Of a DNA stretch of 37,359 bases, positions 1 to 7,030 are shown in pieces. The position numbers and the translations under genes were made by a program. Each line of letters begins with the position of its first letter. The stretch's first letter is position 1. The notes below the pieces were generated by a model that was not told the DNA's origin, did no database searches, and saw only the letters and a list, made by a program, of their open reading frames with translations. This DNA is from a virus (lineage: Duplodnaviria; Heunggongvirae; Uroviricota; Caudoviricetes), in IMG/VR virus record IMGVR_UViG_2654587746_000004, positions 1 to 37,359 of that record; one strand, given 5' to 3'.

Positions 1-1158
1 ATGCTCACCGTTAAGCAGATTGAAGCAGCAAAGCCGAAAGAAAAACCATACCGCCTTCTCGATGGTAATGGCCTGTACCTTTATGTTCCTGTATCCGGGA
101 AAAAGGTATGGCAGCTTCGCTACAAGATTGACGGTAAGGAGAAAATCCTGACCGTCGGAAAATATCCGCTTATGACTTTGCAGGAAGCAAGGGATAAGGC
201 ATGGACTGCGAGGAAAGACATCTCGGTTGGCATCGATCCGGTAAAGGCGAAAAATGCTTCGTCTAACAACAATTCATTTAGTGCGATTTACAAGGAATGG
301 TACGAGCACAAGAAGCAAGTCTGGTCAGTAGGGTATGCGACTGAACTTGCAAAAATGTTTGATGACGACATTTTGCCTATCATCGGCGGCCTTGAAATTC
401 AGGATATTGAGCCGATGCAACTGCTGGAAGTAATCCGCAGATTTGAAGATCGCGGTGCAATGGAGCGAGCAAATAAAGCCCGCAGAAGATGCGGCGAGGT
501 TTTCCGTTACGCTATTGTCACCGGCAGGGCTAAATATAACCCGGCACCTGACCTTGCTGACGCCATGAGGGGATACCGCAAGAAGAACTTCCCGTTTCTT
601 CCTGCAGACCAGATCCCGGCATTCAATAAAGCACTGGCAACATTTTCAGGAAGTATCGTATCGCTCATTGCCACCAAGGTTTTACGCTACACAGCCCTAA
701 GAACAAAAGAGCTTCGTTCCATGCAATGGAAGAACGTCGATTTTGAAAACAGGATTATCACCATTGACGCCAATGTGATGAAGGGACGCAAAATTCATGT
801 TGTCCCGATGTCGGACCAGGTGGTTGAACTTCTCACTACGTTAAGCTCCATCACCAAACCAGTATCAGAATTTGTTTTTGCCGGGCGCAACGATAAGAAG
901 AAGCCAATCTGCGAGAACGCGGTGCTACTTGTGATCAAACAAATCGGCTATGAGGGTCTGGAAAGCGGTCACGGATTCAGGCATGAATTCAGCACGATTA
1001 TGAACGAGCACGAATGGCCTGCTGACGCTATTGAAGTGCAACTGGCACATGCCAACGGCGGATCTGTGCGCGGTATTTACAACCATGCTCAGTATCTCGA
1101 TAAGCGCAGAGAAATGATGCAATGGTGGGCGGACTGGCTTGATGAAAAGGTGGAGTGA
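1..1158 (+). CDS. int: Tyrosine integrase, P4/CP4-57 family
   Basis: 385-aa ORF; N-terminal MLTVKQIEAAKPKEK...LYLYV arm-binding region and C-terminal RxxMMQWWADWLD tail resemble remembered P4-type integrases such as IntA; directly follows xis across the window junction. Confidence 0.9.
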   Translation: MLTVKQIEAAKPKEKPYRLLDGNGLYLYVPVSGKKVWQLRYKIDGKEKILTVGKYPLMTLQEARDKAWTARKDISVGIDPVKAKNASSNNNSFSAIYKEWYEHKKQVWSVGYATELAKMFDDDILPIIGGLEIQDIEPMQLLEVIRRFEDRGAMERANKARRRCGEVFRYAIVTGRAKYNPAPDLADAMRGYRKKNFPFLPADQIPAFNKALATFSGSIVSLIATKVLRYTALRTKELRSMQWKNVDFENRIITIDANVMKGRKIHVVPMSDQVVELLTTLSSITKPVSEFVFAGRNDKKKPICENAVLLVIKQIGYEGLESGHGFRHEFSTIMNEHEWPADAIEVQLAHANGGSVRGIYNHAQYLDKRREMMQWWADWLDEKVE

Positions 1159-1402: not shown

Positions 1403-2545
1403 TCAAGGTGCTTCTCTAACGGATTCAGTTTTAATTGAAGATACATCTGATTTTTTTTGCATTCTACGAGCGATGGCATGCCCTATGGATACTGATGGTT
1501 TTTCAATAAAGTTATAAGATATGATTGATATAATAAAAGTAGCGCAAATCATAGCTAGAAAAACACCAAATCCTTTACTATCCAATACCCCGTACGGTTT
1601 GAGATATAAAACAGCAAGACTGTATACAACCATATGATTAATGTAAAGTGAATAGGATATTTCACCAACATACGTTAGAATTTTATTTCTATATACATCC
1701 CTACACTTAGAAATAAGGACTATTGGGGCTATAATCATAAATGAATAAGCCCCCCATGCTACAATTCCAGGTCCATTCCTTAACCCTAGGCATAAAAAAA
1801 GCAAGGCAATCGCTAATGTAATATTAAGAAATTGAACAACAGGCATTTTATTTATAAGTCTAGAAGGTAGCCTAATGTAGGCCTCTGCAATAATCATCCC
1901 CAAAATAAAGTCATATATTATTGGATTTGATACAAATACCAGATTACGAATAATTCCATCACCAGATGGCGGTTGCGCGATAGGATTTAGAAAAACATCT
2001 CCGTGAAAGTACAGTTGACCAAGAACGCAAATAATGATGAGAAGAAATGATGCGATCGCAGTTCTATATTTATGGCTGATGCATAATGAAAAAAAGAAAA
2101 CCACATAGAACCAAATTTCATACGTTAGTGTCCATGCAGGTATTATTATACTATAACCTGACCATGGCCCTATAAAATTATAGTCAATTGGTATGAGCAA
2201 GTAGCTCTTTATTATTTGTGATGATGTATATATTGCCTCATAGTTGAGGTATATAGCCAGAGTAAGGATTATAAAGTAAACAGGGTACAACCTAAAAAAA
2301 CGCTTAGCAGCAAACACCATTGGCCGGTTTTTTGCCTTATTCATTGAAGAATAAGTAATGATAAATCCACTTATAACAAAGAATATATCAACACCAACCT
2401 CACCTATACCAAAAAGAATGTCGCCCAAGTCCTTTTGGGCATACACTCCATTTAAATATACTCTAAAGTGAAACGCAATGACTAGAAGTACCGCGATCCC
2501 TCTAAGGACTTGAATAGAGTCTAACTTATTTGTTTTTCTTTCCAT
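1403..2545 (-). CDS. Integral-membrane acyltransferase, family 3 (Oac-like O-antigen acetyltransferase; serotype conversion)
   Basis: 380-aa ORF, markedly AT-rich; many hydrophobic segments; N-terminal LRGIAVLLVIAFH...DIFFVISGF motif typical of Acyl_transf_3/Oac; sits between tailspike and int as oac does in Sf6. Confidence 0.8.
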   Translation of the reverse strand: MERKTNKLDSIQVLRGIAVLLVIAFHFRVYLNGVYAQKDLGDILFGIGEVGVDIFFVISGFIITYSSMNKAKNRPMVFAAKRFFRLYPVYFIILTLAIYLNYEAIYTSSQIIKSYLLIPIDYNFIGPWSGYSIIIPAWTLTYEIWFYVVFFFSLCISHKYRTAIASFLLIIICVLGQLYFHGDVFLNPIAQPPSGDGIIRNLVFVSNPIIYDFILGMIIAEAYIRLPSRLINKMPVVQFLNITLAIALLFLCLGLRNGPGIVAWGAYSFMIIAPIVLISKCRDVYRNKILTYVGEISYSLYINHMVVYSLAVLYLKPYGVLDSKGFGVFLAMICATFIISIISYNFIEKPSVSIGHAIARRMQKKSDVSSIKTESVREAP

Positions 2546-2615
2546 ATCAAAATGTGTTTTACTGATTTTTTTTAAACATACCAGATCAAAGTAATCATTT
2601 CAATACATAGGTCTT

Positions 2616-4739
2616 TTAAAAGTTTCCCTCTGATAAGAAAGAATAGGTTCCTGGCCCACCTGGAATATTGCATGTCCATGCCTTTGGTTGTCCTGAAGCA
2701 GGTGCGCTATTGATAACACGCTCACCTATATCCCAGAAACCGGATGTAGGTACTGACGAAAGATAAAATGTTGTTTTTTCAACTTGCAACGCGTTTGATG
2801 GCATTCCATATGCACATAGAGAAGGTGAGTTTATGAGTACATTTCCTGAACCATAATTTCTTATACCAACATTTATAGCTGTATCAGTTTCGTATATATA
2901 CACACCACAACTAACATAGCTCCATTTCCCATTACCAGCTAAAGGTGCTGTAGAGTCTGTTTGTCCTGCACCATTAATTATAAACATAAGTTTTGACGCT
3001 GATCCCTGGTCATTGACCCACGCACCAAACCATACAAATTTCCCTTTTAGTTCTGGTGATTTGTTGAGGTCTATCGTTCGTCCCCAAACTCTATCTCCTG
3101 TCGTAACTAAGAATGAATAATTACCAGCATAGATGTTTTGAGTTTTTATCAATGTTCCTGTAGTTCCAGATGCCGCAGTCCAGAGCAACATATTTCGATC
3201 AAGATAGTTAGCAGTTAACTCTCTGTTCGCAATATCTATTAAATGAGCAGTGTCAGGGTTTTGTGTCGCCGGGTCATAACTACCAACGTATCCGATGGAG
3301 TTCACTGTGTTGTTGGCAAGATATAGCCTGTCAGTAACTTTGGACGAAAGATTATTGTGGTACATTGCTAATAAATTATTCACTTTCGATGCGTCTAATA
3401 ACTGATTATTTTCAATCGTCAGGTTTTTCGCATAGTTCGTGAAAATAAATCCGTCTTGGTTAGGTAGCGCGCTGGCGTAGCCAATCGCGGTCTGCTGATT
3501 CCCGCGAATAGATACGGTATCATTAATTTTTGAAAGGTCAGGAATTAATGTAAAATTGTTCGCGATAAGGTGGATATCCGCACGTACTGTAATAGACTCA
3601 GGTACACTATACTGGTAACCAATCTCACCGTTGCGTTCCCAATAGTTATCATCAAGGTTAAGGCCTTTAACCCCGTAAGCCAAAAGTCCGTAGAACTTAT
3701 TTTGCTCTATATTGTTGCCATTAACTCTGACGCTCATACCGCCCTCAGCGTAAGCTGGCGTAAGTAAAACTCCACCGGCTCCGTTACCATAGATACGGCT
3801 GTTGATTATATTAATATTATTGCAGTAACCACCAACATTAATACCGTTACCGGCGTTTTGAAACAACCGGCACCCAATGATGTCAATGGAGTAACCGTTA
3901 ACTAATATTGCGTTGTTATTAGTATTAACCACGTCAATATTTTCTATTTTAATGTGGTTGGCTTCAGTAAGACTGATGCCGTTAGCTGCGTAGCCATTTC
4001 CGTCAAGACCAAAGTCCCTGAACTCGCAGAACGTAATTACCCCATCTTGTTGCGTGATTATCGGTGCCGCTGTACCCGTAGAGAAAATTCTGGACTGATA
4101 TGCGCCAGCACCTCGTATCATGGTGACAGTATTCTTAATCGTAATACCAGGGTCAACAATGAACGCCCCCTCTGGTATAACAATCTCAGTTGGCAACGTA
4201 GCATCATCAATAGCCTTCTGAAATGCAGCTTTGTTCTGAGCACCGGTGTTTCCCTCAGCAAACCCGTAGTCTGTAAGCGTCCTCAGGTCGATAGTTAGCT
4301 TTTTTGAGAGAATGGTCGATGTGCTATCGACAAACTGTGGGTTATGCATGACTAGAGAGTCGCCAAGTGAGTGATCTTCGCTCAGGAGATTGCCCTTAAA
4401 CTGATCTGGATCATACTTTAGCACATTCGGAAAATAGAACTGCTGCGCACCGTATGCATCGTATACAGCCATAGAATGGCCTTGCACAGTTACGAACTTG
4501 GCAATCTGTCCGTTATATACCGGATACCCGCCAGCGTTAATGATGATTGGCTGTGCAACAGGAACGTGAGAACCGTCTTCATTCTCTACATAAACCTGAA
4601 TCTGGTTTTCAGGGTTTACCGGGTCAGTGTCAATTTTACCGATATAAATTTTACCATTGGCTACGGCTTTAAAAGAACGAGCCATAGTGAAGAGTTGCGA
4701 AGGCATCGATACGATCACATTGGCTGTAATGTCTGTCAT
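2616..4739 (-). CDS. Tailspike protein (P22 gp9-like head-binding domain, divergent beta-helix receptor-binding domain)
   Basis: 707-aa ORF; first ~115 aa ([40 protein letters not shown]...) match the remembered P22-family tailspike head-binding domain; remainder is Gly/Asn-rich repetitive beta-helix-like sequence. Confidence 0.9.
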
Positions 4740-4795
4740 TTAATTTGCTCCAGATACAAGGAATCGCCGCAGCGTAGCTACGGTGAATTTTGGGC

Positions 4796-4820
4796 ATAAA
4801 AAAACCCAGCCGAAGCTGGG
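4796..4820 (-). terminator. Rho-independent terminator downstream of ant
   Basis: On the minus strand: hairpin CCCAGC-TTCG-GCTGGG followed by TTTTTTTAT, immediately 3' of ant stop. Confidence 0.7.
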
Positions 4821-4839
4821 TCGTTGCGTTGGTTATCTG

Positions 4840-5718
4840 TCAGTAGTTATGTACTGAAGGAGGCAATTCTTTATTCTTAAGTCTCATCCATGCGGAAAGA
4901 TTCGTTGGTCCGTCTGGCTCATTAATATCAACATCTCGTGTGTGGTTTATTAAAACGTCTCTCGCCATTCCGATAACATACGAGAATTCATGACCGTAGT
5001 CGTAGCATCTGCCGGAATAGTTCGATTGAATTTGTTTTAGCGCCGGATACAGTTCGCGGAATAATGCCTGTGAGCGGTTGGCATAATCCCATAACCATAC
5101 AAGGCTGTTTGCTTCTTTTGCAGAAAGCTCGTTGGTTTTCTTCTCTTGTTTGCCAATGAACTCACCTTCAAGCACTACCCTGTGGATGTACTCTACGGCC
5201 AGCGGGATTTGTTCAATTGAAAGTTCATCAATGCTGTCAATACCAAAACGCTGATGAACCATATTGTATGCATCGTCATAGCGAAGTCCTTTCTTTCCTA
5301 CCAGCATGTTTACTGCATCGCGTAGCGGTGTTCTTTCCTCAACAGTGGTTTTCTTTCCTTTTACATACTCGCCATGTTTGCGAATTGAAGGCAGAACTTC
5401 TGCTGTTACCCACTTGCGGAATTTGTGCGGGACTGAACCTTTATTGACTGCATCGCGGCAGCGCAGAACCAATGTATACATACCTGATTCGCTCACAATG
5501 CTTAGATTCTGCTCACCACCAAGGGTGTAACTTAAAGTTACTCCCTTTTCATCGTCATCAAGTGCAGTAAGCGCCTTGCGTGAGTTAGTCAAATCTAAAG
5601 CATCACAAACATCTTTAGCTACAAACCACGGCTCACCGCACTTGTTGATGACGCGGATTTCACTGTCGCCGAATTTGAAGATGGTGAAATCGTTTTGTGC
5701 CTTTGCTATACTTTTCAT
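4840..5718 (-). CDS. ant: Antirepressor Ant (BRO-N/AntA-type)
   Basis: 292-aa ORF immediately downstream of arc; N-terminal [30 protein letters not shown] resembles BRO-N/antirepressor family; position matches P22 immI. Confidence 0.85.
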
Positions 5719-6038: not shown

Positions 6039-6293
6039 ATGGCTAGAGATGATCCGCACTTTAACTTCCGTATGCCTTTGGAAGTAAGAGAAAAATTGAA
6101 ATTAAGAGCCGAGGCTAACGGAAGGTCAATGAACTCTGAGTTATTACAAATCGTTCAGGATGCACTATCAAAACCATCACCGATTACAGGATATCGCGAC
6201 GAAGCTGAACGCTTGGCTGATCAGCAGGCTGAGCAGTTCAAGGCTATAGTGTTTGAGACACTTAAAAAGATTTATGAAAAGGATTTGAAATGA
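6039..6293 (+). CDS. mnt: Mnt maintenance repressor
   Basis: 84-aa product MARDDPHFNFRMPLEVREKLKLRAEANGRSMNSELLQIVQDAL... closely matches remembered P22 Mnt (ribbon-helix-helix). Confidence 0.92.
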   Translation: MARDDPHFNFRMPLEVREKLKLRAEANGRSMNSELLQIVQDALSKPSPITGYRDEAERLADQQAEQFKAIVFETLKKIYEKDLK

Positions 6294-6625
6294 GATTTCT
6301 ATCACTGTTCTTGTTAGCAGTTGTCTCTTCTTCCAGTGCTGAGCTGCGCGAGCTTCAAACGGGTAATGACCTTCTTTACAACATTCAACAAGGTAAAAAG
6401 GGTGATGATTTTTCATCGCTTTACATTACTGGATATTTGCGCGGAGTAACTGACTCATTGATACTAATTGGTTCTCTATGTCCTCCTGATGGCGTTGACA
6501 TGTATCAATACACCGATATCGTTGAGAAATATCTAAACAAAAACCCAGAATCAAGAAATGAGAGTGCAGTTATACTAACCGCCCTAGCAGTAGGAAAAAC
6601 ATTTCCGTGCAAAAAGAATCAATAA
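6290..6625 (+). CDS. Secreted (signal-peptide) protein of unknown function; possible Rap1a/Tai4-like periplasmic immunity-type fold (unverified)
   Basis: 111-aa ORF; ATG overlaps mnt stop (ATGA); N-terminus MRFLSLFLLAVVSSSSA looks like a Sec signal peptide; mature part has two Cys (..SLCPPDG.. and ..FPCKKNQ) and a GYLRGVTD motif; lower GC than flanking phage genes. Confidence 0.6.
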   Translation: MRFLSLFLLAVVSSSSAELRELQTGNDLLYNIQQGKKGDDFSSLYITGYLRGVTDSLILIGSLCPPDGVDMYQYTDIVEKYLNKNPESRNESAVILTALAVGKTFPCKKNQ

Positions 6626-6640
6626 CAATAAGGGCTTAAA

Positions 6641-7030
6641 ATGAAATTGATTATAGCAATGGCTTTCCTTGTCTTCTCGTTTTCTGTCTCAGCAGAGTGC
6701 TGGGTCGTTGGAGATATGCACGGAATAAGCTATTCAGAACGAAATAATTTTCAACCGGAAGAAGATGGTTTTAGTGGAACATTCATCATTAAGACAAACG
6801 GTGAAGATGCCAGTATCACATATTCTGGGACGGATGCGGGCGGCATGGCTTACAAAGCATTGTCTAAAAACTCCATCATTGGAATCGGCGCGAATGGCGA
6901 AACTCAACGAGTTATCGACTCATGGGTAATACATCCTAATGGAACAGTTTTAATGTCGAAAACCATTTCTGGTTATGGGAATATGGATTCAACCAAAGCT
7001 TTTGTTGGAAAAGTAAAAAGAAAATGTTAA
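6641..7030 (+). CDS. Secreted (signal-peptide) protein of unknown function, predicted beta-rich
   Basis: 129-aa ORF 15 bp after the previous gene with AAGGG upstream; N-terminus MKLIIAMAFLVFSFSVSA is signal-peptide-like; mature protein starts EC.. and ends ..KRKC (terminal Cys pair); Gly/Ser/Thr-rich; low GC. Confidence 0.6.
   Translation: MKLIIAMAFLVFSFSVSAECWVVGDMHGISYSERNNFQPEEDGFSGTFIIKTNGEDASITYSGTDAGGMAYKALSKNSIIGIGANGETQRVIDSWVIHPNGTVLMSKTISGYGNMDSTKAFVGKVKRKC

Follow-up and report, generated by a model that had tools for sequence, protein, structure and literature searches.

According to our analysis, positions 1403-4739 of the window (the whole stretch of viral DNA under study, 37,359 nucleotides) probably represent the host-range and lysogenic-conversion cassette of a P22-like (Lederbergvirus) prophage residing at argW of Escherichia coli O26, and this judgement is meant for the explanation as a whole, its mechanism included. 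The cassette pairs a tailspike gene with a gene for a membrane acyltransferase (AT). It had been suggested from the sequence alone that the logic of phage Sf6, where an acetylase modifies the receptor of the tailspike, applies here; this remains the best-supported reading, partly supported by the data below and strengthened by comparative genomics.

Results

The prophage end adjoining argW is marked by an IntS-type tyrosine integrase gene (1-1158, plus strand; PF00589, PF22022 and PF13356 matches), whose counterpart in the O26 strain 2013C-3277 is annotated intS and located after tRNA-Arg. Both open reading frames of the sequence-only reading were recovered: 1403-2545 on the minus strand codes for 380 aa and is a putative O-antigen O-acyltransferase (lysogenic-conversion) gene of the AT3-only kind, and 2616-4739, also on the minus strand, codes for a tailspike of 707 aa, which is defined by its ORF, by Pfam and by phrog_8846, the latter matching over the full length. 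Upstream of the tailspike gene the scan found a terminator-like hairpin (4803-4822, minus strand; an 8-bp stem with 5 GC pairs, then a T-run), beyond which lies the gene for the antirepressor Ant (4840-5718, minus strand; PF02498, PF10548). Ant, Arc, Mnt, gp16, gp20, gp7, needle, coat, portal and terminase stand in the window in P22 gene order, and the tailspike gene follows immI (mnt/arc/ant) and occupies the int-proximal end of the P22-type virion module. CUS-3, Kapi1 and phiv205-1 match the window with 58-60% coverage at ~96% identity, and similarity to the O26:H11 prophage copies stops at window ~4836, near ant. The AT gene lies between the tailspike and int/att and has an atypical base composition, as is characteristic of serotype-conversion cassettes.

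The tailspike combines a conserved P22-type head-binding N-terminus with a divergent beta-helix, just as had been read from the sequence. The head-binding (virion anchor) domain, aa 1-113 (4401-4739, minus strand), is matched by PF09008 Head_binding over the full profile length (E=1.2e-66), and a sequence search of the PDB matched the N-terminus to those of Sf6 gp14 and the P22 tailspike. DNA similarity to CUS-3, HK620, Sf6, epsilon34 and other P22-like phages is confined to window ~4399-4900, that is, to the head-binding codons and the ant junction, and within the tailspike gene it ends at about codon 113. The receptor-binding region (RBD), aa 121-707 (2616-4379, minus strand), is composed of a linker, a right-handed parallel beta-helix, also matched by PF13229 Beta_helix, and a C-terminal beta-sandwich, and is predicted to be O26-specific. 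Comparison of a monomer-only structure model with known folds supported the expected beta-helix, while the match itself was generic (TM 0.3-0.4) and is no proof of hydrolase activity. An invariant acidic ladder, D286/E345/E368/D388, provides by inference the candidate catalytic residues. The identical protein is deposited as WP_038987731.1; NCBIfam has no match for the tailspike or for AT.

AT was correctly described before as a family-3 protein encoded by DNA of strongly reduced GC content. PF01757 Acyl_transf_3 covers aa 9-344 (E=9e-29; score 100.9 bits, gathering threshold 31; profile positions 2-325 of 326), and phrog_3333, 'O-acetyltransferase', is the best PHROG (E=3e-103). The architecture is AT3-only, with a single Pfam domain, ~10 hydrophobic segments and no fused SGNH domain. 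All three signature motifs of the family, defined as R/K-X10-H in TMH1, FFXISG in TMH2 and RXXR in the TMH3 region (PMC7448272), are present as R15-X10-H26, F55FVISG60 and R82FFR85; they are invariant across 35 AT homologues and Sf6 Oac (R15, H26, F55, F56, S59, G60 and R82 in the alignment that includes Oac) and are kept down to about 32% identity. The AF2 model is all-helical (pLDDT 89), and its best fold match is human HGSNAT, a transmembrane acetyl-CoA transferase (probability 0.99); a PDB sequence search with AT gave nothing at E<=1. No gene in the window (mean GC content 0.472) is poorer in GC than the AT gene with its 0.345 (34.5%), and since 1143-nt segments outside the cassette have a GC of 0.482 +/- 0.028, none falling below 0.398, this bias is real and extreme for this DNA, which marks the gene as a moron. 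The proposed resemblance to Oac is true at the level of the superfamily and fails at the level of orthology: BLASTP gave 28% identity over 120 aa (E=4e-5), the multiple alignment 21%, and the Oac-type phrog_6705 matches at E=2e-15 only. Membership of AT in the Oac, OacB, OacC and OacD group is thus ruled out by the 21-28% identity and by the assignment to phrog_3333 rather than phrog_6705.

The AT gene is co-directional with the tailspike gene and starts 70 bp downstream of it. This gap contains a sigma-70 type promoter-like site (2575-2603, minus strand), a candidate lysogen promoter for AT, which reads TTGAAA, 17 nt, TG-n-TATGTT, with 9/12 consensus matches and an extended -10 (the -10 element at 2575-2580); it is a consensus-level match, and in our promoter scan sites of the 9/12 type were no commoner than in shuffled sequence. 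The element is kept in a related metagenome locus (L005), independent promoter-like sites occur in the equivalent gaps of three others (L004, L015, L016), and every tailspike-AT gap examined, the present one and those of four related loci, holds consensus-level matches of this kind. The scan found no intrinsic terminator between the two genes, and the AT start codon is not preceded by a canonical Shine-Dalgarno sequence.

The O-antigen that the sequence-only reading left undetermined can now be named. Among 5,426 complete E. coli genomes O26 wzy is present in 109, and the cassette occurs in 105 of these and in none of the 5,317 others (Fisher p~1e-217). TW01221, F3_13_1_3 and CFSAN061761 are among the O26 genomes that lack it. 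Queries with the whole cassette, with AT alone and with the RBD alone each reached exactly 105 genomes, in which AT and RBD co-occur without exception; all 105 are O26, because a chimeric wzy+RBD query reaches only 109 genomes in total. The annotation of strain 2013C-3277 includes wzx and wzy of O26, and CFSAN027350 is O26:H11 (PMC6667211). From so strict an association we infer that the source genome of the window (GCA_000812725.1) is likewise of serotype O26.

In the 105 genomes the AT gene is full length and 99.8-100% identical, it is intact even where IS3 splits the tailspike (DEC9B, F2_407_2_2, 7_33_46A), and at least 1,000 contigs encode precisely this protein. The RBD has a wider distribution. 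A second O26:H11 prophage carries the same RBD (97% identical, aa 168-707) on a different anchor (PF18668), and in this Uetakevirus-type prophage a lone gtrA stands beside the RBD and AT is absent. There are 37 extra RBD copies across the 105 genomes, and the co-residence of two prophages with essentially the same RBD indicates that exclusion is incomplete or that the order of acquisition matters. Uniqueness of the RBD to P22-like phages is ruled out, for it was found on Uetakevirus-type and Kuttervirus-like tailspikes as well.

Beyond E. coli, AT homologues stand directly downstream of tailspikes with different virion anchors in Budviciaceae (L004; RBD 57%, AT 56% identity), in the metagenome locus (RBD 65%, AT 87%), in Morganella and in Arsenophonus (L021). 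The two Morganella loci, L015 and L016, have identical AT and the same 69-bp spacer behind two different anchors; their RBDs are 99% identical to each other and unrelated to that of the window. A Cronobacter homologue adjoins gtrABC, and a Citrobacter tailspike with 80% RBD identity has gtr genes in the AT slot. In the seven contexts examined, subfamily members at 50-87% identity occurred only beside tailspikes or gtrABC O-antigen glucosylation genes. A scan of viral contigs returned six loci, three of them being the O26 cassette itself, and more distant AT homologues near tailspikes; a scan of genome contigs with the AT alignment (generic FFxISGFxI motif) gave mostly distant AT3 proteins from unrelated phyla, the Arsenophonus locus alone being informative. 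Such adjacency to tailspikes across lineages, and to gtrABC in Cronobacter, supports a module of receptor-binding and receptor-modifying functions.

Discussion

From these observations it would be logical to suggest the following mechanism. The tailspike would be anchored to the virion through the conserved N-terminal domain, and its beta-helix domain would bind the O26 O-polysaccharide (a Rha-FucNAc-GlcNAc repeat) and most likely hydrolyse it. In the lysogen, a promoter of its own within the 70-bp gap may drive transcription of AT, and the enzyme would move an acyl group, probably acetyl from acetyl-CoA, over the inner membrane onto a sugar of the O26 repeat unit. The receptor modified in this way would be bound or cleaved poorly by virions with the same RBD, the outcome being superinfection exclusion, shielding of the lysogen O-antigen from tailspikes that the lysogen itself releases and, possibly, a change in surface antigenicity.

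The same enzyme might instead modify the O26 O-antigen for the benefit of the host, in antigenicity, serum or complement resistance or defence against other O26 phages, with the phage's own tailspike tolerating the change. Near-fixation of the gene in O26 (105/109), its persistence where the tailspike is split by IS3, the co-residence of same-RBD prophages in some genomes and the retention of an acetylase gene even in decayed remnants of the O104:H4 prophage (PMC3303846) are all in line with this, and we regard it as unlikely, though worth keeping in mind. Against it, the RBD and AT move jointly between phage backbones, as in the Morganella loci, which is easier to understand if they share one target epitope; self-blocking has direct precedents in BTP1 and Sf6; and O26:H11 is a young clonal group, in which near-fixation may reflect descent and not selection.

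Acylation of O26 as such, which receptor modification by AT presupposes, has to be set against the known chemistry. To our knowledge the O26 reference structure is without acyl modification, and in the work of Manca from 1996 the repeat unit is said to carry no O-acetyl group. One study gives the composition of the glycan, and the composition only, as GlcNAc, FucNAc and Rha; it says nothing on native O-acetylation, because the glycan was made recombinantly (PMC12093740). Our literature searches found no published report of O26 O-acetylation, and with the AT gene in ~96% of sequenced O26 genomes an abundant or stoichiometric modification would probably have been noticed, which counts against a modification of that extent.

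AT could then act on some other glycan, such as ECA, colanic acid, LPS core, osmoregulated periplasmic glucans or capsule, the neighbourhood of the tailspike being simply the usual moron slot by int; the absence of any known O-acetyl group from the O26 unit would agree with this, as would the use of the int-tailspike gap as a general cargo site, where CUS-3 has, by annotation, K1-capsule-related cargo. Substrates of AT3-only proteins are indeed many and include ECA, OPG, Nod factors and other glycans (PMC9558356, PMC7448272). We nevertheless give this possibility little credit, since in the seven contexts examined the closer relatives of AT keep to tailspikes and gtrABC, and since confinement of the cassette to one O serogroup is not expected of an ECA- or core-directed enzyme. 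That AT is silent or non-functional cargo hitch-hiking with the RBD, as the missing canonical RBS, the weak consensus promoter and the O-acetyl-free O26 unit of the older work might suggest, is very improbable for a full-length gene so well conserved in 105 genomes, with all catalytic motifs intact, a confident AF2 model and the exact protein on so many contigs.

O26 is the leading non-O157 EHEC serogroup. We put forward, tentatively and as a proposal on which we would not insist, a broader view. Nearly all E. coli O26, EHEC O26:H11 included, may have a prophage-borne AT3 enzyme that is active and acylates their O-antigen, and an RBD together with a receptor-masking AT under its own promoter may form a two-gene unit of horizontal exchange, hopping between unrelated anchors (P22 head-binding versus Tail_spike_N) in O26, Morganella, Arsenophonus and Budviciaceae. 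If true, the native O26 epitope relevant for serodiagnosis, vaccines and phage or pyocin targeting would differ from the textbook trisaccharide. Modification of the O-antigen by AT would affect O26 serology and glycoconjugate antigens produced from the bare gene cluster, as well as the efficacy of O26-directed phages, tailspike reagents and retargeted pyocins, and it would explain resistance of lysogens to phages with the same RBD. The RBD itself can be considered a ready-made module, predicted to be O26-specific in binding and depolymerase action, and its travelling with AT across backbones makes a modest general point about co-evolution of host range and exclusion. Should AT be silent, or have a different glycan as its target, the region would be a typical P22-like host-range cassette.

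Comparison with known systems

One of the closest known systems is Sf6, with its gene 14 endorhamnosidase tailspike and Oac, likewise a P22-like podovirus with an AT3-only acyltransferase between tailspike and int. Its head-binding domain is about 90% identical to the present one and similarity extends to aa ~256, whereas beyond aa ~330 the RBDs are unrelated. Oac shares the R/K-X10-H, FFXISG and RXXR motifs with AT, but has 333 aa against 380 and the low identity given above; oac is encoded on the same strand as int, converges on the tailspike gene and has an annotated promoter and terminator, while the AT gene here is co-directional and downstream. The O-antigen of the Sf6 host also differs from O26. 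In Salmonella BTP1 and P22 an O-antigen-modifying gene (GtrC-family II OafB, or gtrABC) adjoins the tailspike at the int end, as here, and in BTP1 the acetyl group that OafB adds to rhamnose gives protection from the rhamnosidase tailspike of the same phage (PMC9558356, PMC4413052). Unlike AT, OafB has an SGNH domain fused to its AT3 domain. PhiV10 (Uetakevirus, E. coli O157:H7) is a temperate podovirus whose AT3 Oac modifies its own O-antigen receptor (PMC9558356). It differs in phage genus and serogroup, and the Uetakevirus-type prophage of O26 has no AT.

The P22-like prophage of E. coli O104:H4 (Scholl et al. 2012, PMC3303846) resembles our case in layout, having a conserved ~113-aa anchor, a serogroup-specific C-terminus and an acetylase 'just downstream'. 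There, in another serogroup, tailspike specificity was shown by experiment with a retargeted pyocin (PMC3303846), and O104 acetylation has been reported; the O26 pair is known here from its sequence and is likened to that system by description. Pas et al. 2023 obtained two RBPs from O26 strains, one of Lederbergvirus and one of Uetakevirus, and assigned both to O26 by consistency of host serogroup (PMC10408124). Matched by description, their O26 RBP subtype is very probably the same tailspike family as ours; they noted merely that the genes downstream of the RBP vary and did not consider the adjacent acyltransferase (PMC10408124). The sole deposited phage with a related RBD, Escherichia phage N7 (MH717096), has the same domain order at 65% identity over the full length and 58% in the RBD, for which its specificity is probably different, and has a 324-nt hypothetical ORF in the AT slot in place of an acyltransferase. 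The arrangement of a tailspike with an acetylase is therefore already known from Sf6, BTP1 and O104:H4, and a 2023 in silico study predicted the O26 specificity; the O26 version of the pair is new.

Results

The coordinates that the sequence-only reading gave for the two genes were exact: the acyltransferase (AT) ORF occupies 1403-2545 (minus strand, 380 aa) and the tailspike ORF 2616-4739 (minus strand, 707 aa). The pair is flanked on one side by the gene of an IntS-type integrase (1-1158, plus strand) and on the other by the immI genes ant, arc and mnt, and the window outside this cassette looks like a complete P22-like prophage. In the immI/sieA position, bounded by mnt and the ejection gene gp16, lie two small genes (6290-6625 and 6641-7030, both plus strand), one a homologue of the Rap1a family of type VI secretion immunity proteins (PF18602, E=1e-14), the other encoding 129 residues with a signal-peptide-like hydrophobic N-terminus (phrog_2651, function unknown); both may be morons shielding the lysogen from T6SS attack. 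At the corresponding locus of E. coli 2013C-3277 (L001, 5242-8000), tRNA-Arg (argW) has a prophage integrase on either side, so that a second prophage lies in tandem across the tRNA.

The tailspike has, as had been noticed earlier, a conserved P22-type N-terminus (PF09008 at full length over residues 1-113, E=1e-66) and a divergent receptor domain: DNA similarity to CUS-3, HK620, Sf6, epsilon34 and other Lederbergvirus phages is confined to about 4399-4900 and ends near codon 113, a classic mosaic junction between virion anchor and receptor-binding region (RBD, residues 121-707). The Sf6 gp14 match stays within the N-terminal ~256 residues, Pfam reports a Beta_helix domain, and no solved structure is similar in sequence to residues 121-707. 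Homologues as distant as 36% identity all retain D286, E345, E368 and D388, which lie about one helix turn apart and are candidate catalytic carboxylates. Of the 50,697 phage records deposited, that of phage N7 alone encodes a related RBD (58% identity, and 65% across the whole protein). N7 lacks AT, as does a virulent phage that has several tailspikes and an RBD of 52% identity.

Exactly this tailspike (WP_038987731.1) is found in the draft genome GCA_000812725.1 at the equivalent chromosomal site, and seven of its residues are not those of the common O26:H11 allele. Two of them, D364 and Q376, replace A364 and P376 of that allele (present on at least 1,000 contigs), at about nt 3648-3650 and 3612-3614, neighbours of the invariant E368; the other five differences are N-terminal. 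The last ~57 residues (about 650-707, nt 2616-2790; …W-D-x-G-E-R-V-I-N-…-G-Q-P-K-A-W-T-C…) share ~49% identity with the C-terminal ends of unrelated proteins, labelled 'pectate lyase superfamily', from a Bacillus phage and from a contig of Caudoviricetes, suggesting a widely shared module.

Profile searches place the AT protein in PF01757 (E=9e-29) and in phrog_3333 'O-acetyltransferase' (E=3e-103). The three motifs that PMC7448272 gives as AT3 signatures are all present, as R15-X10-H26, F55FVISG60 and R82FFR85, and their residues do not vary across an alignment of 35 homologues and Sf6 Oac. The structural model of the protein (pLDDT 89) consists of helices throughout, about ten of them in the membrane; it lacks an SGNH domain and is best matched by human HGSNAT, a transmembrane acetyl-CoA transferase (probability 0.99). 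We consider a functional AT3 enzyme highly probable. The gene is indeed strongly AT-rich (GC 0.345 vs 0.482 +/- 0.028 in equal-sized windows outside the cassette, the lowest of them 0.398). The proposed resemblance to Oac did not hold at the level of orthology, which is ruled out by the low identity to Sf6 Oac (28% over 120 aa by BLASTP, 21% in the multiple alignment); the nearest acyltransferase among deposited phages shares 36% identity. Gene orientation differs as well: in Sf6, oac has the same strand as int, converges with the tailspike gene and comes with an annotated promoter and terminator, whereas the window AT is co-directional with the tailspike, 70 bp downstream. This gap has a promoter-like TTGAAA-17-TGgTATGTT (2603-2575), no predicted terminator, and no canonical Shine-Dalgarno before the AT start codon. 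Each of the tailspike-AT gaps in related loci has a promoter-like element too, the one in L004, a Budviciaceae prophage, being preceded by a strong hairpin.

The O-antigen, left undetermined by the sequence-only reading, can now be assigned as O26 by the distribution of the cassette. Of 5,426 complete E. coli genomes, exactly 105 contain the 3.7-kb cassette at 99% identity or above, and the number is the same for AT by itself and for the RBD by itself. The carrier 2013C-3277 has an O-antigen cluster annotated with O26-family wzy and wzx (the latter annotated as frameshifted, which may be an assembly error), and its type of O26 wzy is found in 109 genomes. A chimeric wzy+RBD query, by which co-occurrence was tested, matched 109 genomes in total, so every RBD-bearing genome is positive for O26 wzy, and the RBD is in 105/109 such genomes vs 0/5,317 others (Fisher p~1e-217). 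Among the carriers are the O26-named RM10386 and RM8426, H19, DEC9B, and CFSAN027343, CFSAN027346 and CFSAN027350, published as O26:H11 (PMC6667211). We consider it highly probable that the RBD is specific for O26. In DEC9B, F2_407_2_2 and 7_33_46A the tailspike gene is split by an IS3-family transposase next to an intact, 100% identical AT; in SJ2D, AT is annotated in two pieces.

A second O26:H11 prophage (L007/L008, 8001-10622) encodes an 873-aa Uetakevirus-type tailspike with a Tail_spike_N anchor (PF18668) and a near-identical RBD (97% over residues 168-707, the differences being concentrated in the linker, 115-167), followed by a lone gtrA remnant. It is consistent with the earlier in silico assignment of a Lederbergvirus and Uetakevirus prophage RBP subtype to O26 (PMC10408124). 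The 105 genomes together contain 142 copies of the RBD. Two prophages that share it can be co-resident, so exclusion is not absolute.

Beyond E. coli, a Tail_spike_N anchor, a related RBD and a co-directional AT follow each other in the Budviciaceae prophage (RBD 57%, AT 56%) and in a metagenomic contig, L005 (65% and 87%). Two Morganella morganii prophages (L015, 4898-8107; L016, 4967-8107) encode one identical AT, 55% identical to ours, behind an identical 69-bp spacer and RBDs that are 99% identical to each other and unrelated to the window RBD, one on a Tail_spike_N and one on a P22 head-binding anchor. In Candidatus Arsenophonus triatominarum (L021, 1770-4600) the tailspike combines a P22 anchor with an RBD of the Morganella type (51%), and AT comes next. 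Such pairs on different anchors suggest that RBD and AT are exchanged together. A cryptic Escherichia clade has an AT of 81% identity close to what remains of a tailspike C-terminus; a chromosomal islet of Cronobacter turicensis (L017/L018, 7001-11167) has a homologue (50%) next to gtrA, gtrB and a gene of GtrC type; and in Citrobacter sedlakii (L009/L010, 8213-11012) gtrABC-like genes fill the AT slot beside an 80% identical RBD. By these contexts, the AT subfamily goes specifically with tailspikes and with loci for O-antigen modification.

Discussion

From our analysis, the best reading is the logic of Sf6 and BTP1, and we lean towards the full model of a tailspike with a receptor-modifying AT. 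The tailspike would bind, and probably hydrolyse, O26 polysaccharide; the lysogen would express AT, which would acylate this polysaccharide, so that the same RBD would bind or cleave it less well. Sf6 Oac, BTP1 OafB and PhiV10 Oac are precedents for such an enzyme (PMC9558356), and an O104:H4 tailspike with an acetylase downstream for the arrangement (PMC3303846).

The main evidence against the model is O26 chemistry. The O26 repeat unit of Manca 1996 is reportedly without an O-acetyl group, and no report of O26 O-acetylation was found in the literature searched; the AT gene is in about 96% of sequenced O26 genomes. The modification must then be sub-stoichiometric, labile, condition-dependent or overlooked, or else the target is not the O-antigen. 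The glycan has been described, as composition only, as GlcNAc/FucNAc/Rha (PMC12093740).

An O-antigen-modifying gene beside the tailspike is textbook knowledge for P22-like prophages; a similar arrangement is already described for E. coli O104:H4, and the O26 assignment of the RBD was already predicted. What is new is the quantitative and exclusive association of the whole cassette with O26, the placing of AT in an AT3 subfamily that is uncharacterised, linked to tailspikes and separate from Oac, the joint transfer of RBD and AT between anchors suggested by the sequence comparisons, and the apparent mismatch of AT with the reported O26 repeat unit, which offers a direct experimental test.
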